From the NCBI GenBank assembly GCA_000091205.1, contig AP006500.2: a stretch of 64,000 nucleotides of DNA; one strand, written 5' to 3'. The stretch is from Cyanidioschyzon merolae (lineage: Eukaryota). A program made the translations under genes and the position numbers. The notes beneath the pieces are model-generated. The model did not search any database and was not told where the DNA came from. It worked only from the letters and a program-made list of their open reading frames with translations. This document shows positions 9,196-57,886 of this stretch, piece after piece. Position 1 is the stretch's first letter, and each line of letters starts with the position of its first letter.

Positions 9196-11726
9196 TTATA
9201 AAGGTCCAAGAAACTTCGCCTTCATTGCCCTCGAGCGTACGGTTATGCCGAGGAATTCCCTGCCCTGTAACGGGAGCGCGACATAGGGCGCTCTGCTGTC
9301 CGCAGATTGCGGCGAAGTGGCAGCGCGCAGCTGGACAGCAGCATCCCCCGGAGCGTATCGCCTTTTCGTGAGAGCGGAGCGTATCCGAAGGAGGGATTTC
9401 CTTCGGGTGCAGGATTATAGACGTGAGCTTGTTTTTCCCAATAGCGCCATGGTTATGGGATATCCGGGAGAGCGTCTGGTTTTCTGAAGGATATGGCTTG
9501 CACTGCCCCAGCGTACAGACAAGGCGAGCTGGGGCTTGACTTTACGGCATCGTCGCTGGATACGTTCGACGTGCTTGCACTGCATCTGCGTCTTTTCACT
9601 AAACATTGTTTGATCGGGCGGGTTTTTCTTTTGGAATGCTAAGCTGATGCGTGCGCATAGAAGCGGTTGGATGCCTGCATCATGAGTGTCAGCATGGGAA
9701 CGGGCCAGGTACACGTTCCGAACTCGGGCGTGAACGCTAGCTTTCTTGTTTCTCTCAGGTGTGATGGACAGCTGCCGTTGGGGAATTTTTTTCGGCGACT
9801 GTTCACGTTTTCTCTCTTAGTTCCAGATTACAATATGCTGGTCTATTCTTTCCATCCAGCTCTGTTCACAGCAGTTGACGGATGTTGGCGGTAGCGTTCA
9901 AGTCCGGATTTCGTACCTGCCGACAGTTGTCAACGCATTTCATGCACAGACGCAAGATGCGGTGTAGGCTCGCTTGACATCTTCATCTTTTTCATGTACA
10001 GTCTCGGTACGCAGTTTGCAGCTGTGACTCCTGGATATGGACAAATGAAGTATAAATCTATCTGCCATACCCTCTCGACTGAGATCCACGTTGAAGCGCG
10101 TAAACGCCTGCTAGATCGCTCCGTATACGCCCTTATATGAAAGGCGATCCTCGATGCCCTGCTCCGTTTCCGTGCCAGGAGCGATGCCCTGCAATGACGC
10201 GCTTGGTTTGGACTATACCGTCGGCGAATGTGCTGCCGGCTGAACGTGCAAGCGCATGCCGTCCATGATAAAAATTAGCTGAGGGCATATCATAACTGGA
10301 CAACAAGTCGAGAAATGTCGATTCGTCTACGCTTTCCTCGTGCGGCACGGTAACGAACGCCCGACTGCAAAACGATCGCCGTGCTGACTGAACGCCGAGT
10401 CCAGGATGCGTATCGGGGCAAACCGAAGCGAGGCGAGCCTCTGGGCGCTCATCGTGTGAGAGCGATCATGCTGCAGCTGTCGAGTTCTGGTTCGCCGGCG
10501 GCCACCCAGGGTGGGCATTGTCTTTCGAAAGAAATCGATTCCTTGACATGACAAGTTCAGAGAAGTTTCGATTTGAACTTGTGAGAATGTCATCAAAGAG
10601 CGATGTGAATTTATGTGACTTCTTCGTCAATCCATCGCAGCGCATCGCTGTGCGCATGCGGTGCCTTGAAATGTAGAGATCGAAAACTTGAATCATGTTT
10701 GATAGGAGCACGATACACACGTACGTGAGGGAGAAGATTCGCGGATTCTACTTGTGCATTGGACAATGATATCGGTTATTATACGAACTCTTGTTCGCCG
10801 GCGTCGCAAAACATCTCGATTTCGGTAACGGAATGAATTCCTTGTCCAAAGCGTTAAAGGAGCGATTCCGAAACAAAGGAAAAACACCGAGCATCTTTAA
10901 ACTACGTTCAAGTAAGACTTGATTCCTGCACTCCGAATATCGAGGTTGCACAGCTAGAACATAGTTCCGGAAAAGAATCGAACTGGATGAACAAAGCGAG
11001 TCATCCCCTACTCGATTTTATCGTCAGCGAAATGAGAAATGTTCTACGATAATTGAGGGTGTATGAATACATACATACGCAGACGCCTCCCAGCCTTGTT
11101 TTGACCGGTTCCCCGATACCGGTTTCAGCTTCTCCCTGTATACTTCGATCCTGAGAGGCTGCTGGACAAAAGTTGGACCGGGGCAGCTTCGAGGGTCACG
11201 TCCCCGGTACCAAACTTCTTCTGATATTGATGGCGGCGTTGAAGTCTCGGTTCACGAACTCCATGCGTTTATTGCCGCTGGTGAAGCGTATCATTGCAAA
11301 GATCCCTAGAACTCGTACCCTCTGTCCCAGTACAATCTCGCTATCGTCCCATCGGACAAACAGCTGTTCTCGAGTATATATCCCCTGTTCTTGTTCTTCG
11401 TCACTTGCTTTTCTTCGCTAGATAGTCGACGAGAAGAGGATCTTTTTCGGTTTTTATCCCGGTCGCCAGCGACACCAGCCCTCTAGAATCCCCGACTCCC
11501 ATGTCCATACGGTTCGCTTAGATTTCTTATTTCTTCAAATGAACGCTTTTCGGACGCTTCGATTACAAACCGAGAAAAAGCGTTTGATGCGACGCACCCG
11601 GAGATGGCGCACAATTCAAGAAAGCGTCTACAATCTGACACGAGCCCACCGCGGCTCGAGCAGGCAACGTACGCTCAGTGCCGCCTTTCGCTTCCTCGGT
11701 GTCGGTCTGGTACCTGGGCGCCACGA

Positions 11727-15335: not shown

Positions 15336-18300
15336 CGTTCATTCGTGTCGGCAGCTCGGCAGCACGAGCGCTAGTCAGAACGGCGCTTGCACCCAGAAAC
15401 GCGCTTGAACGACAGAAATATTTGTTAAGCGAGCAATGGGGTCTCGCTTGCCAAACCAGCCGGAGCAATGTTCGGTTGTTGGCGAACTCTACACCCGTGT
15501 CAGAGTAAAATGGGACACTGAACCGCTCGCTCTCTTCATTCCCATGGATTTTCTTACGACAGATCTTAGATGTCCAGCATCGACGTGAGCAGTGCGGCAG
15601 TACGAGATGATGGACTCATGCGTACTTTAAGGATGCTTGGACGTCTTTTCGGAGCGACTTGCCCGAGTGTATGTCGCAGGGATTCGGTACGGCATTGTCG
15701 TACTGATGGTCCTCGCCACCCTCGAACGAGGGTTCGTAATCTAACCGATACCGTTGTTCAATGCATAGGTACAGGCCTCCGCTGCCTCAAGTTTCTAGCG
15801 TGAAACATGTTCAAATCACGCATTCTTCAAGGTTTCGATCTTTGTGTTTCAAGTCGTGGATACAGTAAATCCGCCTTCGGATTCACGACGAACAAAAGCT
15901 CCATGTCGCGCCTCAACGACTTGTTCACAGGCGCGTACCCAAAGTCCACTGGACTTGGAACCTCAAATAATAACCGATTCCAGTCGATAGACAAATCATC
16001 GTTTCTTGCTGACGATTCGCGAAACCGGATTCCACAGTAGCAGGACGCTTCTCGACAGATTTGTTTCCAGTGGCTCCAGTTTCTTCTGTTTGCACGGGAA
16101 AGGGCCTTAAATTCAGAACTGAGTCATCACAGCGATCGATTCCAGCTGAGCATACGTCACCTCTTTGCAACAAAACAGCGTAGACCGATCGACATTTCTC
16201 GACTTGTTCTTCAACCTGGATTTTCCTTCCGGTACTTTTTTTCATCTCGGATAACATTGCATTCCGCAAATCCTCGATCGAATGCGACGCAGTGCGCTAG
16301 CGTATGCAGCGGACAGTGTACTCGCCCAGGGCATGTATCCGAACTGGCGCGTGTGAACGTCGGGCACGGCACCGGGCGCGGAAACGGTGGCCTGCATCGA
16401 GGCGCGCCTTGTGTTCGCGTCAAGCTCATGTACCGAACGATAAAGCAAGCGCTCACGCTCCACAGAACGGATACCAGAGGCGGAGGAGAACCTGTGATGG
16501 GCGTGCCAGAGAACATCACCCCAGCTCAATATCACCGCCGCAATGGGTGCACCGCGGCTTCATACGAAAGAAGATGAACATGGCAAGCGAGACGTAGATT
16601 GCAAGTTTCGTCGATACATGGAATTCGTCAACAGCAGCCGGAATCAACGACATCGGGACATGAACGCTGCCAGCAACAGCCTTTAAATACTAACAACACG
16701 GTACACGATAGAACCTATGCAGCAACCAGTATATCCCAGAGCACGTATGGAGTTTGGGGCTTGGAAGCAGGGCGCGGAATCATGTATGCTTCACCGCGCG
16801 CTGATATCGAGCGCACTGTCGGGGAACGCTAGCGTGCTTCAACGTTTTTGTCACAGAAACAAGAATGCTGACAACGGGACTGGAGGGAAACGATAGACCG
16901 GCGTATTCAAATCCGGAGAAAACGTGTTGAAAAGGAAGCATTCGCAGAGAACGCCCTCCTAGACGAGAACTGATGACACTGGGAACAGATCCAGACTTTA
17001 GCATGTACGCTTTCGTCAGCAAAAGTGGACCCCTTCCATTTTATTCTTATATAGATGTAGGCCCGGGCTGCGCGGAACACGCGCACCCCCGCCCGGGTTT
17101 CGAACCTGCATCGTGCATGTGCGACGAGGAACCTTGTACCATTTCCGCCATCCAAGGGCGAGGTTTAAAACACACAACAGGTACGCAGTGCTGCAAACGC
17201 TGTTCTCGGAAGCATCGCTCGGGCAACAGCGTTCCCACATGGAGAGCGGGAACGTCCCTCCGCCACCTCCTTGGGAACAGTGCCTTTCGCAGTGCGCTGC
17301 TTTGAAACACCACAGGGACGGATACGGCTTGCCGCAAATCACTCCAGTTTGAACCGCACTCGGATTCGGGTTCCACGCAGGTACGCGGACCCTCCGTCGA
17401 AACCCCAATGAGCGTACGCAATGCAGCGCTGTGGCGTTCTCCCGCAGCACCCCAACATGACCAGCACTGCCAGACAGTCCCAACTTGCGGCCACAAGCGT
17501 TGCAGGTACCCGTATTGTCGCGACGCGTTTCGACCGGATAGCCTCCCTGGATATGATGCTTTCGAACAAAAGCACTCAATTCCGATGCGCCGCAGTTAGC
17601 ACAGCCCCGCGAACGGATGCTCGCAGCAGCACATATGCGGCGGCCTTGGGCCCAATACCACGGGGTATGTCTGGGCGATTCCACTGCCGGACACTGTACT
17701 GGCTCGTTGTGCATTGGACAAATGCGAACCGACGCAACGAAGCGCACTTGCTTGCGACATGGAATGCGTACCACTGAATGGCGGCAACTGGTGCGACCCG
17801 TCGCTGCACTTACATGTTCGCCTCCAGGAATATTCTCTGCAGAATTGTTTGAGGCGGACAGACGCGTATGCACCTGCAGTAGCGAAGATGAGCCAGACAA
17901 GTGCCGATCCATGGTTCGTACCAGCGACTTGGATGATGTTTTTGCGGCTTTCCACGCTCGAACACGGGAGATGCGCTCTCATCTCGACGGCACAGTGCTG
18001 GTTGGTAGCCACGGATGCTGTACCACGAGCCAGGTCCGCCTGATTCTCCAGCTACATAGAGACTGCGCTGACCGCTCCGCACAAAACTTTCTTCGGCAAG
18101 TGCGAGTCGCGAAGCTCAGCTCCATGGCGCTTATCTAACGCGATTTGCAGGAACATGACGCGGAACGGAAACTGTTCGTAGTATACAGAATGGCGCGAAC
18201 ACGCTGCGCTCAGCGCCAGCGTGTCGAATGCCAAACCGGAAGCGGCATCTGGCAACGCACGCTGAACACAAGTGCAACCAGAACAGGGTTCTTCACTAAT

Positions 18301-30864: not shown

Positions 30865-31050
30865 GTGACGAAATGGAAGAAGAGAAGATATCATCGAGAC
30901 AAGGCGTTTGTCCTACGGGACGATGACGGGACTATAGTGGGACGGAGGATGCGAGCTCTAGGAATCCTGGCAATCATGCGTTTCACTGGAGGCAATAAAC
31001 GCAAGGAAACCGTGAACCGGGACTTCAACGCCGCCATCAATACCAGATGA
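30865..31050 (+). pseudogene. Short ORF ending in a TnpB/Fanzor-like RuvC-III motif (NRDFNAAIN); possible remnant of an IS605-TnpB/Fanzor-type nuclease gene
   Basis: 61-aa ORF (GTG start) ending ...GGNKRKETVNRDFNAAINTR*. The TnpB/Cas12/Fanzor RuvC-III consensus is D-R/A-D-x-N-A-A-x-N-I near the C-terminus. No zinc-finger cysteines are present and there is no upstream reading frame (in-frame stop at 30841..30843). If real, this is a degraded fragment. Confidence 0.2.
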
Positions 31051-31254
31051 TGCGCGGCGCTGGAGACGAGACCCGAGGAGCAGAGGCGAGCGAGCTTTGT
31101 GGGGCCCCCTCTGAGGCTCGATGTCTACGTCGAGGAAAGTGATACCGAGCGCAGGCGGTCGGTCAAGAAAGGTTGGGCAGCGTCTGCGCGTGGACACGTA
31201 CGTAGATCTTCCATGGCTGCGAAACGTTTGCGTTTACTGTCATGTTTAGTAGAG

Positions 31255-33245
31255 TTTTTTGGTTTGACACGTCGTCTACAGCGACGATAGATCCCAGATT
31301 GCGGGATGGAATCTGGTATTCGGGAAAGCATCGAACATGCAGCACCCTACCTTCAAGCTTTGTAACCCCGAATGCTTCTCGTATATATTGGTAGTTTCGT
31401 ACAGTCTATTGCGCATCGAGTGCCTGCCCTGAGCACCCGCTACAGCGCTTATACCGCTGGTGCGCATGCAGCACAGTAACGGAACGCCTTTGCCATACGA
31501 CTTGGGGCGTCGCCTGGAGGCGAACTGCCCCTGAACCAGGCTCCGGTCTTGTCGCCGCTGCGCGACGCTCTGGAGAAACCAGACAGCAGCTAGGATGAAT
31601 CCTGAGCGCCGCCTCTCACGTTCGCGATGTTGTACGCAAAGCGTTGTCGGTTGGCGACGCGGGCTTTTGCTTGGCATTCACCAGTGAGCAGGTGTGCAAG
31701 GCACCGGGCCTTCCGACGAGAAGGTAGAATGTGAGTTTGCTGGCCGCTACTGAGCGTTGGGGCTCGCTCAGTTACGAGACCGACGCCTCAATCGATACGA
31801 GCGCGGATGGATTGGACGGGCGTATGCGGCCTGTGGGGTGGTCTTGTGCCACAGGCGCTTCCGCTGACGGGTACGCGGTGCGCTCGGAGCTCGGGTGCTC
31901 TGCGCGTTTGTTACGGAGTATTGGGGTCAGCGCTGGACACGTTCAGGTACGGAGTAGGAAAATAAGCATGCATAGGATGGGGGTTTGTTGTCTTGTGCGC
32001 ACACTTGTTTCGGAATGAAGCGGAACGTGTCTATGGAGCCAGGTAGGTTGTGCGCGCTAACGCCTGGGTCTGTTGCTAGTGGTACCAGTACCAGCTTTGG
32101 TGGACCTTTCCAGCGGCGGATTTGTTTGCCGGTCCCTTAGTTTTGGATTTAAATGGGCAGGTCTTTCGTGTTGCTCCAGCTCCGTTGCCGGCAGTCGAAA
32201 GACGGCGAAAGCAGGTCAAGTCCCGAATGGTCTGCTTTGCGTAGTTGACGACACATCCCGTGCACAAGTAGTTGCTGCGGTCGACGATTCGCTTCCCATG
32301 CTCATTTTCCTTGTATGCAGCATCGGTGCGCGAGTCGCAGCAGCAGTACTCGGCTGTGGTCAGGTGTTCTCATATGACCAATAGACTTGTTCCCCGTTTG
32401 AGAGCAGGTCTGTGGCGTACGAACACCTGCTTCGGCGCTCGTTGCGTACCCTTCACGGGCACCGAAGGCGTCAGTCGGTACCCGCTTCCATCAGCGAGCC
32501 CGGTGCCGTAGCCGCCGATCACTGGCCTCCGCTGGGGTATCCCGTCGACGAGTACGGTGACCGTTGCAAACGCGTACCCTGTTGCCTTCCATAGAGGATT
32601 TGTGGAACGCGATGTTCCATATAATGAAACGAGGAACGGAAGAAGAATCAAGGCCGGAGAACAAGTTGAGGAAACTCGATCCGTCTTGGCTTCTTTCATG
32701 CAGCGCAGTGAAGCATTCTTTATTGGAATCGATTGCTGGGATGGCTCAAGTCCGAGTCCAAGACCTTCGTCTGCGCAGGATTGAGGACACGACGCGGGCC
32801 CTGCTGGAGGTTATCGCGTAACAGGCATCACGCTACAGTCGAGACCAGTTTCGCCGATGACCCTGCAGCCAATACGTATTTCTCTTTCGAGCACGAATCG
32901 GCTACTTGACTTGAGACGTCCACTGAGCATTCGGATGGAGCCTGTAACCAAGTCCTCTGTGGACAAGGTCCAGTTTCTCGCCTCGTGAACAGCGCTGTGC
33001 GAATCGCTGGGCGCACCTGACGCTTTGAAACACAAAAGATCCAAAACTTGATGCGTCCTTGATCCGAGCATGCTACTCGCACGGAAAGGCCAAGAGTGAA
33101 TGCTCCTACGCATGGTTTTGAGAATGATATCCGTTATTTTAGAATTCCGTGTTTGAATGCGTTGCGAATTGACTTGCTTTCCGTAACGCAACGAATACCA
33201 GCCGCAAAGCGTCGAGGGATCCCGCTTCGAAATGACGGCCAAGGC
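31255..33245 (+). repeat. Dispersed repeat family, full-length copy A (about 1.99 kb), unclassified, no transposase/RT
   Basis: About 97-98% identical, in inverted orientation, to 48372..50362. The same small ORFs recur in the paired copies: 31276..31677/49945..50268, 31731..32018/49604..49891, 32073..32384/49238..49558, 32370..32699/48923..49252 and 32811..33341/48380..48811. The boundaries are defined by where similarity to copy B begins and ends. Confidence 0.85.
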
Positions 33246-33434
33246 CCCTAAACAGTACGTTTCAATCAGCAGGCCCCTAGAGATGCGCTGCGAATATCGT
33301 GACTGTATATCTGGGATGCTTTTCGGAGAAAAAAATCGCAAGCCACGAGCAGAGCCAGCAGTTCATTGTTCCATTTTTATTTGTAACCGGTGTAAGGCGT
33401 TGTGCATCTCGATCAAATCAGGGTGCAGGGGTGC

Positions 33435-35891
33435 TCACTCGGGTGTCATGTGCCAGTCCTCATGCCAACGCGTGTTCCAGAGACGTAACGTTTGGTCGGC
33501 GGCACCGCTCACGAGGCCGTATTCACTCAGTGCGAGGCAATTGACGGCGCCGGTGTGGCCGAAAAACGCCCGACGTAGCATGGACGGACGACCTTGTGCG
33601 GGTTCCAGCAGCTGATGCATATCGTAGGCGCGAACGACTTGGTCCGCGCACCCGACATAGAGACGATCGCGGTCGAAGCGAAGCGCATTGATGCTGGAGC
33701 CAGTCTCGAGCACTTGGCGGCATTTGGCTGTTCGCAAATCCCACACTCGCACACACTCATCGCTGCTACCCGTGATCAAACGACTCTCATCGAACTGGAG
33801 ACAGGTGACAGAGGCCTGGGTTGCCTCACCGTCCCCAGACTGCGTCACTGGCAATGTGCGGTGGCAACGTCCGGTTCGCATGTCCCACATTTTGACAGTA
33901 CCGTCAGCACTTGCCGTGGCGAGCCCGTAGCGCCAAAACTGCAGTGCAGTGATGCCAGCCTCGTGTCCTTCCATGCGCAGGACGCGAGCGCGAGTTTCCA
34001 AGTCCCAACAGCAGAGCGTTCGATCGGTCGAACCAGTGATAACACGAGCATCATCCATTTGAATAGCCATGATAGCACCACGATGACCTCCAGCGAATAC
34101 GTGCAGACATCGGTGACGTCGTGTGTGCGGCAGAGAAGTCAGCGGCGACGAAGCGCTTTCCTCGGCGTCGTATAGTTTCCACAGACGAGCGGTGCGGTCC
34201 GCAGATCCCGACACCAACAGTGTGCCTGTTGGATGGATATCGAGGGCGTGTACCCAGCCCTCGTGGCCGTGCAGAGTGTCCTTCCGCGATCCAAACGGAT
34301 CCTTTGAGTCCACAAAAGACTCATCCAAAGACATGCAGACTGAAAGATCCCAGATGCGCAGCGTGCGATCAGCAGACGCAGAAACAATGATATCTGCTTC
34401 CTCGTGCACATCAGCAGCGAGCACCTGGCCAGTGTGCCCGTAAAGCGTACGAATGCAGAGGCGAGGGGTCAGGGAGTCGCGTTCGGAGCCCCGGGCGCCG
34501 CTGCTACTGTGGCGGCTTTCATTGGCAACGGCTCCGAGACGTGCTCCGGTCGGCATGTCCGCTGCTGCTTCGTCGGAGCTCTGTGGAGGATTCTCCGTTT
34601 TGAGCTCGGGAGGCGCACTCGTTGCACTGGGTAGGAAACTCGATCGACCGCGCCGCTCTTTGAGCGCTCGCTCCACCGCCTGAGCGACACCCGAGCCCTT
34701 GAGTTGCCGGATACGCTCCTCGAATGCAACGCTTTCAGAGCCAATAACGGTAACCTTCTCGTCCAAATTTCCAAGAAGTAGACGACTCAGTTCATCTCGC
34801 TCGCCCAGACTCTCCAGTTTCTCTTCCAAGGCATGTTTCTTGGTCAAAAGCTCTGCGAGCGCGGCCTCAACTTCCCGCAAGTCTTGAACGGTAGCGGCGC
34901 GCGCACGATAACATTTTTCGGACTCTCGAATGAGGTACTCTCGATCCGCTTGAAGCTCCAGATATAACCTCGCGATGTTTTCCAGAGACACAATATGCAT
35001 GTTTGGCGACATGCGCATAAGCCGTCTCTGTAACGGCGATGGCGCAGCGAGTGGCCCTTGATGACGATCGCTTTCCTCTGGTGCATTTTCCAATAAACCT
35101 CGGACTTTCTCTTCGGTCACATGCGGAGGCACATCGCTGGCTCCTTGCGACTGCAGAATGCGCGTCAGTGGCGATACCTGATCGTCTTTGGTTGAGGCAA
35201 GGTTTTTCGCCGCACCGAGCCAACCAGGCGAATCGGCTTCTTCATCCTGGTGGCCGAACGGAGATGCCGGTTCGACTGAGCTCGCGCCGTCCGCACCGAT
35301 AAGCGTGGACGCAGCCTGTCGGTCACTGCGTCCGTCTCTGTCAGGTGCTTCACTGACCTGCTCGTCTGAGTGGTCGATACCAGCGTGTGCACCCTGCGGC
35401 GTCCGCGTATTATGAACGGCATTTTTCACCGCCAGTGCCCTGTCCGCGTTTCTGCCAAGAGGCTCCCGAGTCGCCCCGGGACGTAGACGCGCCGCCCCGC
35501 GCTCTGGAGGCTTGCCCTCGTTCGCAGACGGCTCGACGCTTCCACGAAACTTCTGAAAAGCAGCTACTGGATCCAGTGCCTGGAGGTTCTCAGACTGTTG
35601 GTTGGTCCGCTCCCGTAGGGGCCTACTTGTGCCCTCACCTGGCCCATGGACCTTGTTCCGGGTCACAGTTGCTGCTACTTTCTTATCTTCTTTGGTCGCT
35701 TGCTTCGACTTGGTGCGCGCCCGAGTCCCTTCGGCACGAGCAGCGCTGTTCGTCCAAATACCCATCCCAGAAAGAGCCTCAAACATTTCAAAGGGAACGC
35801 TAATCGCGCAGTGCAGATAAAGCACGCCGAGCACTACCCCAAGAACAGGGAACGGTTCTGGGGTTCCGCGAGTCCCACCGCCAGCCCCCAT
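33435..35891 (-). CDS. WD40-repeat protein with N-terminal coiled-coil (striatin-like architecture)
   Basis: The six-frame ORF runs 33435..36119, but its first 76 aa are encoded by or adjacent to the 61-bp tandem repeat. The probable start is Met77 (MGAGGGT..., nt 35891). There is a central coiled-coil (IARLYLELQADREYLIRESEKCYRARAATVQDLREVEAALAELLTKKHALEEKLESL). C-terminal WD40 repeats are present (LHGHEGWVHALDIHPTGTLLVSGSADRTARLWKL, ITGSTDRTLCCWDL, ATASADGTVKMWDM, ITGSSDECVRVWDL, VSGAADQTLRLWN). Confidence 0.7.
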   Translation of the reverse strand: MGAGGGTRGTPEPFPVLGVVLGVLYLHCAISVPFEMFEALSGMGIWTNSAARAEGTRARTKSKQATKEDKKVAATVTRNKVHGPGEGTSRPLRERTNQQSENLQALDPVAAFQKFRGSVEPSANEGKPPERGAARLRPGATREPLGRNADRALAVKNAVHNTRTPQGAHAGIDHSDEQVSEAPDRDGRSDRQAASTLIGADGASSVEPASPFGHQDEEADSPGWLGAAKNLASTKDDQVSPLTRILQSQGASDVPPHVTEEKVRGLLENAPEESDRHQGPLAAPSPLQRRLMRMSPNMHIVSLENIARLYLELQADREYLIRESEKCYRARAATVQDLREVEAALAELLTKKHALEEKLESLGERDELSRLLLGNLDEKVTVIGSESVAFEERIRQLKGSGVAQAVERALKERRGRSSFLPSATSAPPELKTENPPQSSDEAAADMPTGARLGAVANESRHSSSGARGSERDSLTPRLCIRTLYGHTGQVLAADVHEEADIIVSASADRTLRIWDLSVCMSLDESFVDSKDPFGSRKDTLHGHEGWVHALDIHPTGTLLVSGSADRTARLWKLYDAEESASSPLTSLPHTRRHRCLHVFAGGHRGAIMAIQMDDARVITGSTDRTLCCWDLETRARVLRMEGHEAGITALQFWRYGLATASADGTVKMWDMRTGRCHRTLPVTQSGDGEATQASVTCLQFDESRLITGSSDECVRVWDLRTAKCRQVLETGSSINALRFDRDRLYVGCADQVVRAYDMHQLLEPAQGRPSMLRRAFFGHTGAVNCLALSEYGLVSGAADQTLRLWNTRWHEDWHMTPE

Positions 35892-36070
35892 TTCAAATTG
35901 CCGCACCTGGGCGACGCGCCACCCCGGAGGCGCATCCCGAGCGCGCCATCCGCGACTGACGGCAGCGCAGCGATCGATGCGCTCGCGGCTCCGGAGCGGA
36001 GAGCGCTGGTGCGCGTGCGCTGCCTCGGGGCATCCTCCCTGGACGAGTGAGGCACCCGCGGTACCTTGTC

Positions 36071-36320
36071 GGCGATTTGTAGAGCTGCATAGGCCGACGC
36101 GCATACAGCAGCTTCTCACTCGATATTTGGTGGCGATTTGTAGAGCTGCATAAGCCGACGCGCATACAGCAGCTTCTCACTCGATATTTGGTGGCGATTT
36201 GTAGAGCTGCATAAGCCGACGCGCATACAGCAGCTTCTCAGTCGATATTTGGTGGCGATTTGTAGAGCTGCATAAGCCGACGCGCATACAGCAGCTTCTC
36301 AGTCGATATTTGGTGGCTGA
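36071..36320. repeat. Tandem repeat, 61-bp unit x about 4.2 (ggcgatttgtagagctgcataagccgacgcgcatacagcagcttctcactcgatatttggt)
   Basis: Four near-perfect units at 36071, 36132, 36193 and 36254, followed by a partial unit. It lies immediately 5' of the WD40 gene. Each unit encodes MRSCCMRVGLCSSTNR in the gene frame, which artificially extends the ORF. Confidence 0.9.
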
Positions 36321-37812
36321 TGGCGACCAGCTGGACGCTCCAAACAGCATCGTAAGCAGGGCTTTATCCGAAGAGTACTTGCAACGCTTCTCGGTTGTGC
36401 GCAGCGCGCGCCAGTGATCACCAGGTTTGGTGCTTTTCCAGAAGGCATTAATCGGGGTTGAGCAAACCCATTGCCATAGAGGCAGCGCATGTGCAAATGT
36501 TTTTTGAGATCCTGTACTTGAGATGAGCACCCGCTTGCGTAGGCTTCCCCGAGTCTGCTGATCTATTCGGACCTGATTCATGTGTAGCGCTGGGAGCGCC
36601 ACTGCAATGCTGTGTATTTTTACTAGTTCGCGTCCGGGTGCGCGCAGGTTTATCTCCGAAACAGCCGTGCGGCGTCGGAGATCCCGTCCCAGTTTCTCGC
36701 TAGCTGCGCTGGTCCAGCTAGCTGACTTGAAGTCAACGAACGCTTGCGACTGGCCGTTCATTTTGGGGATCGTTCCGCTCGTTGAGAAGCCCGCACAAAC
36801 ACTGTCTACGACCTCGTCAGAGACTGGAATGAACCCATCAGTTGAGAGCCGGGATTGCTCAATATCTCCGCATTTATCACACAAACCGAATGACAGGGTC
36901 TCCGCCTGTGATCGTCCTCATCCCTCACGATCAAGAATAGAGGCAGTGTGCTTCCGGTCGCGAAAATGAGGTGCAACTGGATTCCACGGCCGACGCACCG
37001 AAGCATGTGCATCGTCGGCAGCGCGATGCCTCACATGCCATAGCTCTGGAGCGTTCGACTCGCCACGTGAATCACCAAGCGATGCAGAAAATAGTATTGC
37101 AGGCGTCAGCAGGCAAGACGATTGGTGCCGATTACTTGGGATCAACAACGCATTCGTCGCGACAGCGCGAATGCATCGCAAAGAATAAACGCTTTATGGC
37201 CCGGAAGCGTATTCTTTAGCGCACTCGGCCGGAAACGCCTGACGGTTGCATCCCCCGAAGACGCTCGTACGCACCTCTCCGCTCTAATAGTCTCAGTGCA
37301 CGCATGAGCGGCTTCGAAACGCGAACTGACGTGCCCCGAACGGGGCTGGCGTTAGCGCACCCCCATCTTACGGATTGATGCATACCAGTCCAGGGCGAGA
37401 AACATTTCAAAGGCAACGCAAAAGAACCTAGAGCGAACAGAGGACAGCTATCCGCATTGTGCGCTGTGAACTTGTACAGCGCTCCACCTCATCCAGTCCA
37501 GTGGCGGGAACACAGGAGAAAACGAGCCACCAATCCTCTTTGATATGTCCCATTTTTATCACCAAGTGTACCCATTCGCACCGTCGAACAGGGACTTGCC
37601 TTTGTCGCTCGAGAGCACACTGCTCATTCTCGAGGGTGCTGCGTGGAGACACAACCCCCATTGCTTCCGAGAAGAGAGGTCTCGAGGTGAGCATCTGCGC
37701 AATGGATTGTTCTCGTTCGTCGCGTATGTACTCGACCTGTTCGGTGCTTGCCGAGGAGCATTCGAGCATCGAGAAGCCCTGCGGTCGCAGACAATCCGGC
37801 ACATCAGTAGTG

Positions 37813-38719: not shown

Positions 38720-39075
38720 AAACGTTTTGTCTGCGAGGTGCAGCGCAAACTAGCAAAGCTAAATCGGTTCGAAGAAGCCTCTGGTGAAGGTGGGAAGGTT
38801 CCCCTATCGTAAGCGTCTTGTTTGCGAGGTGCAGCGCAAACTAGCAAATCTAATTCGCTCAGAGGAAGCCTCTGGTGAAGCTGGGAACCTATCCCCTATC
38901 GTAAGCCTCTTTTCCACAAGGTGCTACGCAAACAGGCAAGGCTGAACCGCTTCGAGGAAGCTTTTCGTGAAGGTGGGAACCTTTCCCTGTCATAAGCGTC
39001 TTTTCTACAAGGTGGTACGCAAACAACCAAAGCGACGTAACTTCGAGGAAGCTTCTCTCAAACGAACCGCTTTTC
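38720..39075. repeat. Imperfect tandem repeat, about 90-bp unit x4, in the divergent promoter region directly upstream of NDUFV2
   Basis: Four units, each containing ...gcgaggtgcagcgcaaactagcaaa...gaagcctctggtgaaggtgggaa...cctatcgtaagc.... Divergence increases toward the 39077 start codon. Confidence 0.8.
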
Positions 39076-39826: not shown

Positions 39827-41371
39827 TGCGCATGTACCATGGAGGCTGTTCTTTTCGGCAAACGTTGGATGCTGGTCGGGTATCGATATGGTGTACCCGA
39901 CGGCGGGTGTCGAGTCTTGATGTCAGCGCTTGGCGCCAGAGAGGCGTGTAGCAGAGCGCACGTCCGCATCAGCGCGACGAAAAGCACTGAAATCCTGTCG
40001 GTGACGAGGGATGCATCCTGAGCGACGCTAACATTGCCTCGTTCAAGTGTGGTACAGCGAGCACTGTTTCCATCTGCTTGGACGCATATAGCTACTGTGG
40101 TTCGCGCAAGCGTCGTCGCAAATATTTGTATCCCTAATCATTAAAGATCGAGAAACGGGTACCCGCTGAGAAGCCTGGACCCCAAACCGAGTCATCTTGC
40201 CGCTCAACGAGGGCGATAAGTTGCCGCCGCTCGCCACCCAGCGCATTCCATGAAATCATGCGAACTGGATACCGGGGACGAAGCGGCCGCAGCCTCGTGC
40301 TTTCAGTTGCGTTCGTGCCCGCGAGCGCCACATCCAGTGCATTGCCCATTCGGAGGCCGACGCACCTGCCATCGTCCTGGTTGCCCGTGCACGTCTGCGG
40401 TAATATAGAGGCCGTGTCATGCCTGTTATTGTTTCCGTGCGCGCTGCTTGACAGCCAGGCCCGATTTGCGCTTTGTCGTATACGGTGGCTGCTGATGGCG
40501 AACCGCGACTTGACCGCGCAACCAGTCTGCGCACAGGGCATGTGGCATGCGTGGCGGCAGTCTGGACTATCCATACGCTCGGATGCATGGCGCTTGTGAA
40601 CATCCCAGGTCCAACGAGGTACGCGCTCATGGTGCCGAACTTGTACGCGACTCTGTGAAAAGCAAATCGGACCTGAGTCCGGGGTTCACGGGTACAGTCC
40701 TTCCGCGGATCAAGGCTCTCGTTGTAGTTTTAGCTGCACTTGCTATCTGGATCATCATGGTAACCGTGTCGGTCCGCGGAGGTCACAGATGCGCTAAACG
40801 CATGCCAGCATAAAATGGAATGGGCGCACTGACCTCACTGCTGCATACGCGCTAATATTGGGCTCTCTCTTTTCCAACTGGTATCGAATCCAGCTTTTGC
40901 GGGGTTTTTCTCTGGAACTGCCTCCACTTTCTCCACCTCACTTCCGGTTTTCGAAAGAACGCGCTCTCTTGTGCTTACTTCCTGGTTGTCAGCAGTCGAA
41001 GCGTGTTGATTGCTGGGCCAAAGTCCCAATATCGGTGTTTTCGGATGCTGTAGACGCATGTCATGCACAGATGAAAGGTGTGATCGGCGCAATGTTCACC
41101 TGCTTTGGAGACAGACTCGGTGCATACTTCAGAGCGGTGACAATCGGCTGTTTTCAGGTGTGACCATGTATCCACCATGCCGTTTCTTCAGCAGGCTGCC
41201 CTGTGGCGCGTGAACGCTTCCGTCATCGCTCGGTACATGCTCTGGACGGCTCCAGGATGCTGCCCGCGATACCCTCTCCGTTTCAGAGCTGGATGAGGTA
41301 CCCTACGATCACAGGCTTCTTCCGGGCGATCCGCTCGGCGAGGTCCCTGTCCACTGCATAAGGAAGCGCAC

Positions 41372-42063
41372 GCTGTTGCCTTCCATAGAGGATTTGTGGA
41401 ACGCGATGTTCCATATAATGAAACGAGGAACGGAAGAAGAATCAAGGCCGGAGAACAAGTTGAGGAAACTCGATCCGTCTTGGCTTCTTTCATGCAGCGC
41501 AGTGAAGCATTCTTTATTGGAATCGATTGCTGGGATGGCTCAAGTCCGAGTCCAAGACCTTCGTCTGCGCAGGATTGAGGACACGACGGGGGCCCTGCTG
41601 GAGCTTATTGCATAACAGGCATCGCACTGCAGTCGAGACCAGTTTCGCCGATGACCCTGCAGCCAATACGTATTTCTCTTTCGAGCACGAATCGGCTTCT
41701 TGACTTGAAACGTTCAGTGAACATTCGGATGGAGCCTCTAAAAAGTCGCCAGGTAACAAAGTCGAGTTGCCTTGAAACCAGAGGATCAAAAACTTGAGGA
41801 ATGCGTGATTCGAGCATGCGACACACGAGGAACTGAGCGGCCCGAAAGCGCATAGCTATGCGTTGCCTAAACCGGTCATTTATTTTAACGAACCCTAGCT
41901 CAGGGGCGTTGCGATTTATGTCGACTCCCGAGACGTAACGAATTCCAGCTTCAGGAGTATCGAACAAATGTGTCCGACACACCATCTGAGGATCCTAAAC
42001 CTCCGTATGAATCCATAAGCCATCAGTACTGCACCTCGAGTCTCGAGGCTGCACATCTGAAAA
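41372..42063 (+). repeat. Dispersed repeat family, 5'-truncated copy C (diverged subfamily)
   Basis: The 5' part matches the copy A core (A about 32579..32940) at high identity. The 3' part is a diverged homologue (about 70%) of the A/B 3' region. It is near-identical to copy D over its length (ORFs 41376..41615/56970..57227, 41514..41789/57126..57401, 41605..41985/57217..57597). Confidence 0.8.
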
Positions 42064-45000
42064 CACTGCGGAAGAATCGCATGGGCGCAACTGAGCGCCC
42101 TGTTCTGTGTTCCATTCGAATCTGACACGGGAGTCGCGAAACTTCAGGCTTCGCAGTACTGAACGCAATCGTTTCGACGGTCGTTATTCGTGCAATCCAG
42201 CGGGCTCGTCTCAAAAATCCCAAGTCATATCGAATAACCGAACACCGTGACCGTCACTCGTTGCCGGGGATAATCTATCACGGTGTATGCGTGCGGCGCA
42301 TCAACTTTGCTTCCCGTACCGTACCAGTGCCGTACTCGAGATGTGGACCCAATTCTCTGTCTCCTGGACAGTGACTTTCGTCAATGGAAGCCTTCAGAGT
42401 CTCAGCACAATGCTCCCACTGAGTATAAAGCGGCTCCCTCGAGAGTTCGGTCGACACACGAAGCCGCTGGACGCTCCGGAAAAGGCGAGTACCTCGGGGA
42501 TGCTCATCGATGCATTCAAGCGTCGGTGCGGAATGGCATGCTCGCATGGCCACGAACGGAATCGTACCCGAGTCTCCAGGGCGTGTTCGATCGCCCAGCC
42601 GTCTGACGTTCGCCCTTCCTAACGTACACGATCTCGTGGAACCTGCTCTGTTTCACGCTGGTTTTCTAGATCCGTTTCAATGTGCACCCGTCTTCGTGAC
42701 AGCCGCGTGTCGTCCTGAACGTATCGACGGGAATCGTATGGAACGGATACCTGCAGTCGTGGCACGCTCGCAGCAAACATGCAGGCGTGCAGTCCTTGCG
42801 CGCTACCGCGCGTCCATTTCCATAGGCTGCCATCGAGCGACGCGACGTATCGATGAAACCCATTTTCAACGCACTGAACGAGCAGGCGAATGCATGGTTG
42901 TTGCCTCTGTACCTCGGAAACTGTTGGCGACTCCAGCGTGCTCTCATGTAGGCCCGCCGCAGATCGCATACACGAGCCATCCGGACGCTCATGTACTCGA
43001 TGAAGTGTGGAATTCCTTCCACCATTCACCATTTTTCTCTGCAAGTGAGTGACGATGCTACGCACATAGAGCGTAGCTCATGAAGCGCCCGAAATTGACC
43101 AGCACGTGATTTGGGTTTTTGAGGTTTGCCTGATACGTTTTCGGACCGGCGCTTCACGTGCCCCGATCGTCGACTTGTCGCTGCGGCGCGTCGCGGTGCA
43201 CTGAGAAGCGAGTGTGCAGTTCTCGGAACCCCCAACCAGGTTCAGAGATGTATGCTGTGTCCGAACATCGGTCGCACTGTCGCATTAAGGTGTGATCAAT
43301 CAAGTCCAGAGGAATGTGGAAAGCTGGCAGCCCTGCCTCCGGAACTCGTAAGAAAAGCTGCTCGACGAGGTATGCCACAGCGAGAGGAGCTGGGCGAGCC
43401 TTCATCGAGAAGGAAGCCTCGCGACGCTCGACGGCGTCTTGTATCTGCTGTTGTCACGGATGTGAACAACTCGACTACTGATGCGTGAGCATAAAAAGTG
43501 GACTTTGACGGCAGGGAAAACCCCTTCGACTGGATTGTACAATAGAGCATGGGCTGGCATAAGCGCGGCCCGACGCCATTCTGCGTTGCGGCTCCTTGAT
43601 TGATTTTGAATCATGGAAAGCGACGGTATCTAAGAACAAACCAGAAGAACGCGCGAGTGAAAGGCCACAAAGTGCTCCGACGAAGAATGACCTAATGAAT
43701 GCTCCTATGCGTTTGGCGACTGATATGCAACCATGAAGCTGAATCGCCGCTTGGACTGATATTGTCGGAATGTCCGCTTGTCTCGTGTTTACGAACAGTG
43801 GGTAGCTTCGCTTTGAGTACTCATGTACAAATCTACCAACTCGACCGCATAACGTCTCACCGAGTGAAATGAACACCCGTCCTTCGCGTTTCAGTACGGA
43901 AACGCATGGAGGTTATGGAGCACTCGACGGTCGTCCAGTGAAGCGCGCTTTCCTCTTTGTGCATTCGTGTAGCGTTACCGCAATTCGTACCCAGGGAGCG
44001 GAAACTTGACATCCTGTAGATTTTCTCGCAGTATTCTGCAAAGAACTAGTGGAATGGAATGGATTGACGAGCGGGCAGCCGTGGGAAGAGAATGTAAAAA
44101 GTTTCCTTTTAGGTCTACAACGATCAGGTTCATGACTACAACGACGATGGTTCGTCCGCCTGTTGACGGTACAGAGATTGCCTTTTGGACGGAAAGCCGT
44201 TCTTTGCATGCCAGCACTGACAGCCTTAATCCTTTGCGCGACTTGTCTCCAGTTGACAGGAGACACACCCCTTGGGTTCGATATCTGCGAGAGAAACGAG
44301 GGAAAATGGGGTGTGTTGGTTTCGGCATGCCAAGTTTCACTGCGCTGAGCATAACAGCGGCAAGCGAACCCCCTCTGAGCATTGGACTCGTTCAAACAAA
44401 CTGTGCTTCTTTTGTACCAGTACATTCGACAAACGCTACGCTTCTGTTGAGCGCCCCACGCCCGCCAAGCAGTGCTCCGGCTACCCACAGCAGCGTCGGC
44501 GGCAGTTCTTGTGGTCTCACGGTTTGCACACGATGCGTTTGTTGGTGCTTTCGTGCGACTCCCGCCACTGGAAACCTTTGAAAAACCCGCACTGTAAACG
44601 TTTCGCTGCGGTTTGGTCGAAACTCGAGCGCACGGACGCTCGCAGCACCACGCTTCGCGGGTGGCAGCGCGATCGTCACCGGGTCCGGTGCCGACCTGTC
44701 GCTGACCACCCAGAAGCCCGTGCTACACCCTGTTCACCTACTGGTCTCCTAGTCAAACCGGTACGTTGCCGCGTCTCGCATGCCGTCTACTGCTTCCGCC
44801 TCCGCTCGTATAGATGCGGTAGTTGCTTCGGGGTACGCGCCTGCCGCGTTCCACGATAGAGCCGCCAGCGTCTCCGCAGCGCCGAACGATGGCTGAACGA
44901 GGGCGCGCGGAGACGCACCAGCGTCAGCTTCGTCTCCGCAGCTGCAGGCGAGGCGTCGCCGCTCATCCACAACCGTTCTGTGTGTGTGTGTGTGTCGAGT

Positions 45001-45177
45001 GCCTGGCGCACGACCTACGGAAACGCACACCGAGTAGCTCTGGAGACAGCGACGTGTCTACGAGCCCGTTTCGCGATACCAGAGACTGAACCGGTTACGG
45101 TCTGAGCACAACCAGAACGCTCTCCGTGTTCCGCTGCGGAAAGGTCGGCCAGCGGAGGCGTTAGCGGCAGCAACACC

Positions 45178-45819: not shown

Positions 45820-45892
45820 TCAGGTTGCGAGGCCCCATTGCCCCGTGCTTCAATGCGAGCACTTTCAACACTGACCAGTGCGCGCTGCACGG

Positions 45893-46095
45893 TGTCATGT
45901 CATGTTCTATTCTATTCTATTCTATTCTGTTCTGTTCTGTTCTGTTGTGCGATGCTGCACTGCCGCATCGACATGCGTCCAGCGACGCTGATAACGGCAG
46001 GTGTTCTCGCGGTGCACGATCGACGAACGCATACACATACAGATAGACATATACATACATACATACATATACATACACATACACATACCGCCAAG
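45893..46095. repeat. Compound microsatellites (ttcta)n(ttctg)n and (catac/ata)n in the KDEL-receptor 3' region
   Basis: Read directly: tctattctattctattctattctgttctgttctgttctgttg, and catacacatacagatagacatatacatacatacatacatatacatacacatacacatacc. Confidence 0.85.
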
Positions 46096-46203
46096 GCATG
46101 GCGGGCAACGCGTCCGATGATGCGCGCACACAAGGCGAACGTGCAGGCACCGCCGAGGCCGGGGCTCGCATTCACCTGTCGTGTTGTGCGCTCGTTTCGC
46201 TGT

Positions 46204-48069: not shown

Positions 48070-48371
48070 TGGTGGTAAAGATAGCGTTTATGTCCGTCCT
48101 TTTCGAACGCAAACGTACTGACCTACGATATTTCTTTTACGAGCTGCTTGGTGGTCGTACAGTCAAATCCCGTGAAAATACGCAGTTTCGACCTGGGTTT
48201 CGTTGTAGCGGGCGAAGGACGTCACGGTCGCTACGCACTCGAGTCAGATTGCGATGGAGCACTGAACTAGTCGGTACGTTCCTTTTTTCTCGATTTGCCC
48301 CGAACCTTATAGACCTGCAGGCTCAAGATTCGAAATTCAGAAATAAAGACTTCAAGATGCATGCATAGTCT

Positions 48372-50362
48372 TCGGATTCTTGGTCGTCATTTCGAAGCGG
48401 GATCCCTCGACGCTTTGCGGCTGGTATTCGTTGCGTTACGGAAAGCAAGTCAATTCGCAACGCATTCAAACAAGGAATCCTAAAATAACGGATATTATTC
48501 TCAAAACCATGCGTAGGAGCATTCACTCTTGGCCTTTCCGTGCGAGTAGCATGCTCGGATCAAGGACGCATCAAGTTTTGGATCTTTTGTGTTTCAAAGC
48601 GTCAGGTGCGCCCAGCGATTCGCACAGCGCTGTTCACGAGGCGAGAAACTGGACCTTGTCCATAGAGGACTTGGTTACAGGCTCCATCCGAATGCTCACT
48701 GAACGTCTCAAGTCAAGTAGCCGATTCGTGCTCGAAAGAGAAATACGTATTGGCTGCAGGGTCATCGGCGAAACTGGTCTCGACTGCAGTGCGATGCCTG
48801 TTACGCGATAACCTCCAGCAGGGCCCGCGTCGTGTCCTCAATCTTGCGCAGACGAAGGTCTTGGACTCGGACTTGAGCCATCCCAGCAATCGATTCCAAT
48901 AAAGAATGCTTCACTGCGCTGCATGAAAGAAGCCAAGACGGATCGAGTTTCCTCAACTTGTTCTCCGGCCTTGATTCTTCTTCCGTTCCTCGTTTCATTA
49001 TATGGAACATCGCGTTCCACAAATCCTCTGTGGAAGGCAACAGGGTACGCGTTTGCAACGGTCACTGTACTCGTCGACGGGATACCCCAGCGGAGGCCAG
49101 TGATCGGCGGCTACGGCACCGGGCTCGCTGATGGAAGCGGGTACCGACTGACGCCTTTGGTGCCCGTGAAGGGTACGCAACGAGCGCCGAAGCAGGTGTT
49201 CGTACGCCACAGACCTGCTCCCAAACGGGGAACAAGTCTATTGGTCATATGAGAACACCTGACCACAGCCGAGTACTGCTGCTGCGACTCGCGCACCGAT
49301 GCTGCATACAAGGAAAATGAGCATGGGAAGCGAATCGTCGACCGCAGCAACTACTTGTGCACGGGATGTGTCGTCAACTACGCAAAGCAGACCATTCGGG
49401 ACTTGACCTGCTTTCGCCGTCTTTCGACTGCCGGCAACGGAGCTGGAGCAACACGAAAGACCTGCCCATTTAAATCCAAAACTAAGGGACCGGCAAACAA
49501 ATCCGCCGCTGGAAAGGTCCACCAATGCTGGTACTGATACCACTAGCAACAGACCCAAGCGTTAGCGCGCACAACCTACCTGGCTCCATAGACACGTTCC
49601 GCTTCATTCCGAAACAAGTGTGCGCACAAGACAACAAACCCCCATCCTATGCATGCTTATTTTCCTACTCCGTACCTGAACGTGTCCAGCGCTGACCCCA
49701 ATACTCCGTAACAAACGCGCAGAGCACCCGAGCTCCGAGCGCACCGCGTACCCGTCAGCGGAAGCGCCTGTGGCACAAGACCACCCCACAGGCCGCATAC
49801 GCCCGTCCAATCCATCCGCGCTCGTATCGATTGAGGCGGCGGTCTCGTAACTGAGCGAGCCCCAACGCTCAGTAGCGGCCAGCAAACTCACATTCTACCT
49901 TCTCGGCGGAAGGCCCGGTGCTTTGCACACCTGCTCACTGGTGAATGCCAAGCAAAAGCCCGCGTCGCCAACCGACAACGCTTGGCGTACACCATCGCGA
50001 ACGTGAGAGGCGGCGCTCAGGATTCATCCTAGCTGCTGTCTGGTTTCTCCAGAGCGTCGCGCAGCGGCGACAAGACCGGAGCCTGGTTCAGGGGCAGTTC
50101 GCCTCCAGGCGACGCCCCAAGTCGTATGGCAAAGGCGTTCCGTTACTGTGCTGCATGCGCACCAGCGGTATAAGCGCTGTAGCGGGTGCTCAGGGCAGGC
50201 ACTCGATGCGCAATAGACTGTACGAACTACCAATATATACGAGAAGCATTCGGGGTTACAAAGCTTGAAGGTAGGGTGCTGCATGTTCGATGCTTTCCCG
50301 AATACCAGATTCCATCCCGCAATCTGGGATCTATCGACGCTGTAGACGTCGTATCAAACCAA
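48372..50362 (-). repeat. Dispersed repeat family, full-length copy B (about 1.99 kb), inverted relative to copy A
   Basis: See copy A. The reverse complement of 48372..50362 aligns end-to-end with 31255..33245, with a few substitutions and one or two small indels (for example the frameshift near LYET/LYEL). Confidence 0.85.
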
Positions 50363-50684
50363 AAATAGAATCAGGGGATCGCAACGGAGATCATTTCGAC
50401 GCCACGCGGGGACGTCCTGACGGCCTCTCCGACGCCCGCAAGCCGCACCGAACGGTTATTGTGGCAGAAACGATCCCAGTTCGAGCGGATCCCCGGCGAC
50501 GGGTGGTAGACAACGCTGCTGGACCCGCTGGTGCTGCCATGCGGGGACCGACCCGCCCGACGGACAGAGCAGTGGACGCTCTGACCAGCGTTGGCATCGT
50601 CACTTGGTCAAAGCCTCTGCTCAGAGACTGTGGAGGTGTCGTCTCCGCGGGCCCTGGAGCACGGTTTTTTCCGTTCTGTGACGG

Positions 50685-56188: not shown

Positions 56189-56554
56189 CGAGGCGCTTCT
56201 CTGCGCACAGCGCTGCTCAACAACCCGGCACCGTGTGAAACTCCATTCCGACGACGCTAGAACTCATGAATCCGGCCACAAACCTGAGACCGAATCCACG
56301 AAAAAGCGGCCCAGACGCTTTGGTACGCTGTTCAGCGAGCGCAGACGGAGACTAGATCCTCACGAGGTATAGCAGCACACCAGCGTTTTGCGGAAGCAGC
56401 CACTCCAACGTCAACACGAAATGCAACTGGTCCGCTCACGCCACACAGGCGTACGCGTTCATCTTCGGGTCTCTTACACCTGTTATCATCATCATCAACG
56501 CTTGCGGCTTTTGTTTCTGTGACGGCTGCCTGTTTCTGTGACTGATCACCGGCT

Positions 56555-57675
56555 TTAAATGGGCAGGTCTTTCGTGTTGCTCCAGCTCCGTTGCCGGCAG
56601 TCGAAAGACGGCGAAAGCAGGTCTAGTCCCGAATGGTCTGCTTTGCGTAGATGTCGACACATCCCGTGCACAAGTAGTTGCTGCGGTCGACGATTCGCTT
56701 CCCATGCTCATTTTCCTTGTATGCAGCATCGGTGCGCGAGTCGCAGCAGCAGTACTCGGCTGTGGTCAGGTGTTCTCATATGACCAATAGACTTGTTCCC
56801 CGTTTGAGAGCAGGTCTGTGGCGTACGAACACCTGCTTCGGCGCTCGTTGCGTACCCTTCACGGGCACCAAAGGCGTCAGTCGGTACCCGCTTCCATCAG
56901 CGAGCCCGGTGCCGTAGCCGCCGATCACTGGCCTCCGCTGGGGTATCCCGTCGACGAGTACAGTGACCGTTGCAAACGCGTACCCTGTTGCCTTCCACAG
57001 AGGATTTGTGGAACGCGATGTTCCATATAATGAAACGAGGAACGGAAGAAGAATCAAGGCCGGAGAACAAGTTGAGGAAACTCGATCCGTCTTGGCTTCT
57101 TTCATGCAGCGCAGTGAAGCATTCTTTATTGGAATCGATTGCTGGGATGGCTCAAGTCCGAGTCCAAGACCTTCGTCTGCGCAGGATTGAGGACACGACG
57201 CGGGCCCTGCTGGAGCTTATCGCGTAGCAGGCATCGCACTGCAGTCGAGACCAGTTTCGCCGATGACCCTGCAGCCAATACGTATTTCTCTTTCGAGCAC
57301 GAATCGGCTACTTGACTTGAAACGTTCAGTGAACATTCGGATGGAGCCTCTAAAAAGTCGCCAGGTAACAAAGTCGAGTTGCCTTGAAACCAGAGGATCA
57401 AAAACTTGAGGAATGCGTGATTCGAGCATGCGACACACGAGGAACTGAGCGGCCCGAAAGCGCATAGCTATGCGTTGCCTAAACCGGTCATTTATTTTAA
57501 CGAACCCTAGCTCAGGGGCGTTGCGATTTATGTCGACTCCCGAGACGTAACGAATTCCAGCTTCAGGAGTATCGAACAAATGTGTCCGACACACCATCTG
57601 AGGATCCTAAACCTCCATATGAATCCATAAGCCATCAGTACTGCACCTCGAGTCTCGAGGCTGCACATCTGAAAA
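56555..57675 (+). repeat. Dispersed repeat family, 5'-truncated copy D (diverged subfamily, same as copy C)
   Basis: It begins at the position equivalent to copy A about 32148 (tttaaatgggcaggtctttcgtg...). The core is about 97% identical to A/B (ORFs 56678..56917, 56776..57105, 56818..57030). The 3' part is identical to the copy C variant and ends at ...gctgcacatctgaaaa. Confidence 0.8.
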
Positions 57676-57886
57676 ACGTTTCGGGCGAAACCGAAGCACA
57701 ATAACAGTGCGAGCAGCCCAGTATTCCATTCTCAGATGCGATGGACTTGACGAGCGGCAGGCGTGCGCCTCGAAGTCGGAACTGTGAACGCAGCGCGCAC
57801 GCGTAAAGTCACCAGTAGCGGCACGAGCAAGAATACCACTAGCAAAACCAACATCAACATCAACAACAATAACAGCTTTTCTCAGT

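Follow-up and report, generated by a model that had tools for sequence, protein, structure and literature searches.

A probable decayed IS630/mariner-Fanzor repeat family and its high-identity tracts in the nuclear genome of Cyanidioschyzon merolae

The stretch of Cyanidioschyzon merolae DNA analysed here (64 kb, referred to as the window) is nuclear DNA of strain 10D. Three of its ORFs exactly match BAM82428, BAM82434 and BAM82435, and the domains encoded by its large ORFs (among them RanBP1, SAC3/GANP, WD40 and protein kinases) are eukaryotic. Tandem repeats are present. One, with a 90-bp period, is located at 61265–61804 within overlapping long ORFs (five in-register 180-nt members spaced by 90 bp, three of which are 97–100% identical), and another, with a 61-bp period, lies at 36066–36370, at the junction of the WD40 ORF 33435–36119 and ORF 36177–36884 (four in-register 122-nt members spaced by 61 bp, three of them 96–100% identical). 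A second repeat with an offset of ~91 bp and ~80% identity is found at 38720–39057.

Self-comparison of the window confirmed, far beyond chance, the dispersed repeat that a preliminary description had recorded as a four-copy family (A–D). The repeats are real, but more sensitive searches identified two extra, more diverged copies (E, ~69% identical, and F); six copies of a ~1.4-kb unit, which extends beyond the reported core, are thus clustered within 48 kb (Table 1). The termini of copy F were not recovered. A 23-mer conserved in copies A–E, scanned once against metagenome contigs, yielded 27 loci that collapse into nine clusters, namely A/B/D, C and E of the window and six other loci, indicating that at least six further loci of the family are present in closely related metagenome strains. 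The metagenome contigs that overlap the window are 99.2–99.8% identical to it. When one representative of each cluster was aligned (n = 9), the homologous block was sharply bounded, corresponding to ~1.4 kb of copy A (~31990–33410), with a mean pairwise identity of 50–75% inside the block and ~33% (background) outside. A 1.5-kb majority consensus of these nine diverged copies was used as the family consensus.

Table 1. Features of the repeat family in the window and of related genes on metagenome contigs
Feature	Position	Strand	Remarks
Copy A	32000..33392	-	~74% identical to family consensus
Copy A, 5' TIR	33368-33392		TA at 33393-33394
Copy A, 3' TIR remnant	32000-32026
Copy A, IS630/Tc1-mariner (DDE_3) remnant	32569..33218	-	frameshifted, stop-interrupted
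Copy A, 'DNxxFHK' second catalytic motif	32594-32616		inside DDE_3 remnant
Copy A, Fanzor/TnpB-like C-terminal remnant	32063..32552	-	RuvC-II, zinc-finger, RuvC-III region
Reported 'core'	32145..32975		identity of at least 97-99% between A, B and D; edges both within old element
Left arm common to A and B only	31256..31999	+	outside TIR family
Copy B	48236..49622	+	48379-49622 ~99% identical to A
Copy B, old 5' terminus	48236-48378		only ~50% identical to A's terminus
Copy C	40797..42133	-	TA after 3' end
Copy D	56401..57747	-	both termini old, diverged
Copy E	15492..17057	+	old, unconverted, 60-70% identical to A-D
Copy E, terminal 25-nt inverted repeat	15489-15513 / 17036-17060		TA on both sides
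Copy E, insertion	~170 bp		contains CMe-1A 5' fragment 16696-16791
Copy F	9721..11000	-	old, 69% identical to consensus positions 117-1426
Intact Fanzor-like genes	L039 6001-8377, L040 6001-7807, L043 5569-7281		on contigs that look giant-virus-like

The family carries one decayed reading frame, located on the minus strand of copy A, the strand that the preliminary description did not follow. If two frame changes are allowed, the family consensus can be read as a recognisable protein of ~430 codons. Its N-terminal two-thirds (~230 residues) correspond to an IS630/Tc1-mariner DDE_3 transposase, in which the HTH region and the regions of catalytic motifs one and two are present, and the C-terminal third (~170 residues) to the RuvC-II, zinc-finger and RuvC-III part of Fanzor/TnpB. 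The consensus matches Pfam DDE_3 (PF13358) with an E-value of 4e-7 (30.4 bits, above the gathering score of 28.6), and the same stretch, residues 16–226 in a single frame, matches the NCBIfam IS630 transposase model NF033545 over profile positions 21–238 of 299 with an E-value of 1.3e-11, at a score (44.5 bits) that is below the NCBI equivalog cutoff of 100. This stretch includes 'FVAIGETGFD', 'GYAPRGSR' and 'IMDNIAFHKS', and the most conserved 23-mer of the family is the 'NIAFHKS' codon block of the transposase. The match stops at profile position 238, short of the third catalytic residue.

For the C-terminal part, the Pfam match is Cas12f1-like_TNB (PF07282; E-value of 3.4e-6, 27.6 bits against a gathering score of 26.3). 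Its consensus, 'PVIVGYGTGRGNGGGHRGEPSVPVKGMYRAMKQAF...WEHLTTAECHRC...CMKC...NRDLNAAINILRLL', contains the RuvC-II motif 'WEHLTTAEC', a C4 zinc finger and the RuvC-III motif 'NRDLNAAINI', and conforms to the Fanzor/TnpB signature [TS][TS]-x-x-C4 zinc finger-x(5,50)-RD defined by Bao and Jurka (PMC3627910). The RuvC-I aspartate and the N-terminal REC/WED half have no counterpart: the 'LDPGRVNLYTT' region of the intact homologues is missing, and the N-terminal part of the frame resembles IS630 instead. By tblastn, both remnants could be placed in each of the copies A–F. The DDE_3/IS630 signal appears in the nine-copy consensus only, not in single copies. The minus-strand frames of copies A, D and C, searched singly, matched neither Pfam nor PHROG families, single-copy translations had no match in a 5.8-billion-sequence protein database, and a phmmer search of the consensus against the PDB also gave no match. 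No copy retains an open frame, all of them carrying frameshifts and stops, and a search for an intact, autonomous IS630-like partner gave only short decayed ORFs. Judged by its sequence, the element is a non-autonomous relic, because the transposase match ends before the third catalytic residue and no open frame is left.

The two ends of the consensus are complementary at 24 of 27 positions and thus form terminal-inverted repeats (TIRs) of ~27 bp (5' TACACCCGTGTCAGATGAAAATGGAAC; 3' GTTCCATTTTATTCTGACA[CT]GGGTGTA). On the minus strand of A, the alignment of the copies opens with ...TA followed by CACCCGTGTCAGAT-GAAAATGGAAC and closes with GTTCCATTTTATTCTGACA[CT]GGGTG followed by TA. In copy E, the top hit of an inverted-repeat search was a 25-nt repeat of 76% complementarity located exactly at the termini, and copies A–D retain TIR remnants. 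TA dinucleotides border copy E and the copy on metagenome contig L016 on both sides; A, C and the copies on contigs L021 and L022 have TA on one side, and in the other copies the TA is degraded. The preliminary description had recognised neither a transposase nor TIRs or target-site duplications and had concluded that no standard transposable element class fits the family. As regards the transposase, the TIRs and the class, these statements do not stand: the consensus matches DDE_3 and Cas12f1-like_TNB above their gathering scores as well as the NCBIfam IS630 model, and, once the diverged copies are aligned, 24/27 TIRs and TA flanks (putative target-site duplications, degraded in several copies) are recovered. 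A non-LTR retrotransposon with 5'-truncated copies was also considered and dropped, as the element has TIRs but neither similarity to reverse transcriptase nor a poly-A tail.

The near-identity that first drew attention to the family has a different distribution from the element itself. Copies A (31256–33243) and B (48379–50365) are inverted relative to each other and 98.6% identical over 1988 bp, D (56551–57380) is 96.8% identical to A (32145–32975) and 98.6% to B, and C (41298–42063) is 95.4% identical to D (56914–57675). Between C and A, the identity is 89% over A 32508–32975 and reaches at least 97% (98–100%) over 32590–32940 only. Windowed identities resolve these values into separate tracts. 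A and B are ~99% identical over 31256–33243 and then ~51% up to the terminus; A/B and D are 98–100% identical only over 32145–32975; and C and D only from position ~32570 to ~33290 of A. Outside the tracts, copies A–D are 40–74% identical to one another, as is copy E to any copy. Copy D is a mosaic that is A/B-like over 56551–57380 and C-like over 56914–57675, and copy C is 98–100% identical to D over ~41366–42063 and to A/B over ~41385–41740, with 50–74% identity in the remainder. With the left edge of the A–B tract as the sole exception, all tract edges lie at least 70–150 bp inside the element termini.

Judged from these identities, the 'core' is the region in which several high-identity tracts (A–B, A/B–D and C–D) coincide and not a conserved functional module. 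The core of ~800 bp and ~97% identity described for four copies applies to A, B and D, whereas C shares only ~350–470 bp of it; the lower similarity of the 3' parts of C/D to those of A/B was described roughly correctly (given as ~70%; 46–74% by our measurement). A mosaic of identities with edges inside the elements points to ectopic gene conversion or recombination between copies located 7–25 kb apart, a possibility that had already been raised and that fits the pattern. Ectopic (non-allelic) gene conversion among dispersed repeats is known from yeast Ty elements, mammalian Alu and LINE sequences and segmental duplications, and the situation is likewise one of sharp-edged blocks of near-identity in diverged neighbours on one chromosome. 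Neither whole-element transposition nor simple segmental duplication would give a pattern in which the tract edges are internal and each copy keeps its own diverged termini.

The tract with the exceptional edge is the one that lends some support to the view that the copies are plain segmental duplications unrelated to mobile DNA. The 1988-bp A–B tract (98.6%) runs ~740 bp past the TIR-bounded unit into a fragment of a different transposable element, related to CMe-1A. The left arm shared by A and B only contains a piece of the CMe-1A/TE-N2 type, because the CMe-1A consensus matches there: A 31265–31520 is 77% identical to positions 4–256 of the CMe-1A/TE-N2_CMe consensus, and B 50102–50349 also matches it (76–77% for the A and B matches). 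The left tract edge at 31256 coincides with the 5' end of this piece. The overrun is not explained by simple conversion between two solo elements, and an older composite duplication may underlie the A–B pair. As an account of the family as a whole, segmental duplication is nevertheless unlikely: the loci have no flanking genes or flanking sequence in common (no flanking-gene synteny around the copies was seen in the window), the 1.4-kb unit occurs at at least six unrelated loci with TIRs and TA flanks, and the tract edges fall within older homology.

The high identities of the pairs (95–99%) and the clustering of six copies within 48 kb, reminiscent of the way in which cut-and-paste elements hop locally, could also be read as a recent transposition burst of one active subfamily, with A–D as young insertions rather than homogenised old copies. 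We regard such a burst as improbable. In no pair does the high identity extend over a whole element between its TIRs; the internal segment in common differs from pair to pair, and the termini are only 45–60% identical. Furthermore, frameshifts and stops are present in all copies, and the same copies occupy the same sites in closely related strains (99.2–99.6% identical).

Several contigs of related strains differ from the window in the arrangement of the copies. In contigs L006 and L007, window positions 43979–49477 are joined to 57380–54574, which connects copy B to the left flank of D; this join, found in strains ~99% identical to the window, would invert 49478–56550. In contig L026, 51930–57675 is joined to 42064–44776, which connects D to the right flank of C. 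These joins could be real repeat-mediated rearrangements or assembly chimeras, the latter being possible because the agreement of L006 with the window order also breaks off at 54574, next to a further repeat fragment. In addition, related-strain contigs (L001–L011, L018, L036 and L037) often end inside copies, for example at 32318, 32817, 48519 and 56842, so that the near-identical tracts evidently break short-read assemblies.

The conserved core had also been proposed to represent a non-coding RNA or regulatory module. Its small ATG-initiated ORFs (79, 85 and 109 aa) are incidental and have no match in a collection of 15 billion protein sequences. When diverged copies are compared, the substitutions lack codon periodicity and the indels do not come in multiples of three, which fits neutral decay and makes dN/dS on the small ORFs meaningless; the earlier judgement that protein constraint on these ORFs looks unlikely is therefore supported. 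Fanzor and TnpB elements encode a guide RNA at their 3' end. A core under selection as functional RNA, such as an omega-RNA-like transcript of a Fanzor element, would agree with this and with the non-synonymous differences in the small ORFs noted in the preliminary description, and viral Fanzor loci show sequence conservation with the last ~80 nt of the element (see below). However, no Rfam 15 family matched anywhere in the window at the gathering score, RNAalifold predicted 0 pairs for the 3' region (12 sequences, the decay of the copies limiting the power of this analysis) and only -5.5 kcal/mol over 414 columns for the core, with an unfavourable covariation term; that is, essentially no conserved structure was detected. 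The core (32145–32975) also leaves out 32000–32144, where an omega-RNA would lie, the most conserved 23-mer consists of the transposase codons for 'NIAFHKS', and the old copies E and F are only 60–70% identical in the core. We thus consider selection on an RNA or regulatory module highly improbable.

CMe-1A, whose fragments lie near several of the copies, is a C. merolae Fanzor1 family of 3169 bp with ~150 copies and without TIRs, and TE-N2_CMe (~70 copies) corresponds to its 5' 635 bp (Bao and Jurka, PMC3627910). The same authors list Fanzor1 in white spot syndrome virus, and Nozaki et al. (2007) described 253 copies of a 3.2-kb element with a truncated WSV486-like ORF in C. merolae, together with eight class II elements whose closest similarity is to bacterial transposases (PMC1955436). 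Fragments of CMe-1A/TE-N2_CMe are located at 30943–31128 (+), 11079–11342 (-), 42669–43004 (-), 54734–54902, 16696–16791, 31265–31520 (+) and 50102–50349 (-) of the window, one of them overlapping ORF 42510–43052, a hypothetical protein found in metagenomes, and the transposable element content of this chromosome stretch is unusually high for C. merolae. A BLASTN comparison of the CMe-1A consensus (3169 bp, taken from the supplement of Bao and Jurka) with the 1.5-kb family consensus gave nothing better than an E-value of 0.59, and the two families are therefore distinct, with no nucleotide similarity between their consensuses. They share the genome and a Fanzor-type C-terminal motif, and CMe-1A fragments lie beside and within the copies, but CMe-1A lacks both TIRs and a DDE transposase part, whereas the 1.4-kb unit has both. 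That the repeat simply belongs to CMe-1A, i.e. the 253-copy element of Nozaki et al., is hardly credible: such fragments do adjoin or interrupt copies (31265–31520, 30943–31128, 16696–16791 and 42669–43004) and both families have Fanzor-type C-termini (E-value of 0.005), but the nucleotide comparison, the TIRs and a Fanzor module far closer to virus-like proteins (E-value of 1e-39) than to CMe-1 (E-value of 0.005) all argue against it. By our own inference, the family may instead correspond to the eight 'class II elements' of Nozaki et al.; it is absent from the C. merolae listing of Bao and Jurka (PMC3627910).

The virus-like relatives of the Fanzor part are intact proteins of 551–712 aa (P0044, P0046, P0047 and P0048), which it matches with E-values of 1e-34 to 1e-39. 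P0044, P0046 and P0048 are the closest intact relatives of the module (42–46% identity), and the motifs 'PVI[IV]GYGTGRGNGGGH[KR]GEPSVPVK' and 'RNRD[LF]NAAINIL' are common to the module and the intact proteins. The closest relatives are encoded on hot-spring metagenome contigs (L039–L043). Besides many ORFans, these contigs contain genes for Peptidase_S74, UvrD and RNA ligase and for a divergent Rpb2 that scores 485 bits with Pol II Rpb2 and 405 bits with archaeal RpoB. From this gene content, the contigs look like giant-virus DNA, and there are reports of giant viruses associated with Cyanidiophyceae mats (PMC11003980). The 3' ends of the viral Fanzor genes and the algal family have GTTCCATTTTT..ACA.(A/G)GGTG followed by TA in common, the sequence conservation extending over the last ~80 nt of the element. 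A search for the left TIR up to 6 kb from the viral Fanzor genes was negative, and a scan of IMG/VR with P0046 revealed no relative. These similarities suggest, as a tentative reading, that the repeats could represent an undescribed chimeric IS630/mariner–Fanzor family that has its Fanzor module and right end in common with the viral genes and would have been exchanged, as a mobile element, between giant viruses of Cyanidiophyceae and their host; we hold this to be possible, though not the likelier case.

Mariner/Tc1-type elements that captured Fanzor1 have been described as PUl-1, PUl-4 and PGv-1, which have TIRs of ~24–33 bp and TA target-site duplications, some of them residing in giant viruses of algae (Bao and Jurka, PMC3627910). 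The C. merolae family has the same kind of TIRs, TA flanks (degraded in several copies) and a mariner/IS630-like DDE transposase followed by a Fanzor1 part in the same orientation. In contrast to these elements, a single frame of ~430 codons joins its two genes, presumably as the result of an internal deletion. The third catalytic residue is missing from the transposase and RuvC-I from the Fanzor part, the length of the unit is 1.4 kb as against 3.4–3.8 kb, and all copies are dead. With bacterial IS630 and eukaryotic Tc1-mariner elements, the family shares the NF033545 and PF13358 matches, the partly degraded TA flanks and the short TIRs, but its transposase is truncated at position 238 of 299 and fused to a Fanzor module, and an intact transposase was not found.

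Taken together, the repeats probably represent a decayed, non-autonomous class II family of the IS630/mariner–Fanzor type, bounded by TIRs and TA, which would derive from an internally deleted ancestor, would have been mobilised in trans and would owe its 'core' to conversion tracts. The ancestor may have been a mariner/IS630 element with a captured Fanzor1 gene and the architecture of PUl-1 and PGv-1, in which an internal deletion would have fused the truncated transposase to the C-terminus of Fanzor. The deletion derivative would then have been mobilised in trans (a search for an intact copy or an autonomous IS630-like partner found none) and inserted at TA sites, after which all copies would have decayed to 70–75% identity to the consensus. 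Recent ectopic gene conversion or recombination among the four neighbours A–D would have produced the tracts, the old termini staying diverged. The family is thus probably a previously unrecognised relic that belongs to the known mariner/IS630–Fanzor kind, being neither a new element class nor, in all likelihood, a functional RNA.

C. merolae, a model 'minimal' eukaryote, is said to possess hardly any class II transposons and to be free of MITEs. The decayed IS630/mariner–Fanzor chimera adds one family to its small inventory of transposable elements and represents another case of the capture of Fanzor by mariner-type elements. This does not overturn the current understanding. The mosaic pattern provides a clean local example of ectopic gene conversion in the dispersed repeats of C. 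merolae, and such repeats can seed rearrangements and break assemblies. If confirmed, the link to the giant-virus-like contigs would bear on the movement of RNA-guided nuclease genes between viruses and algae.
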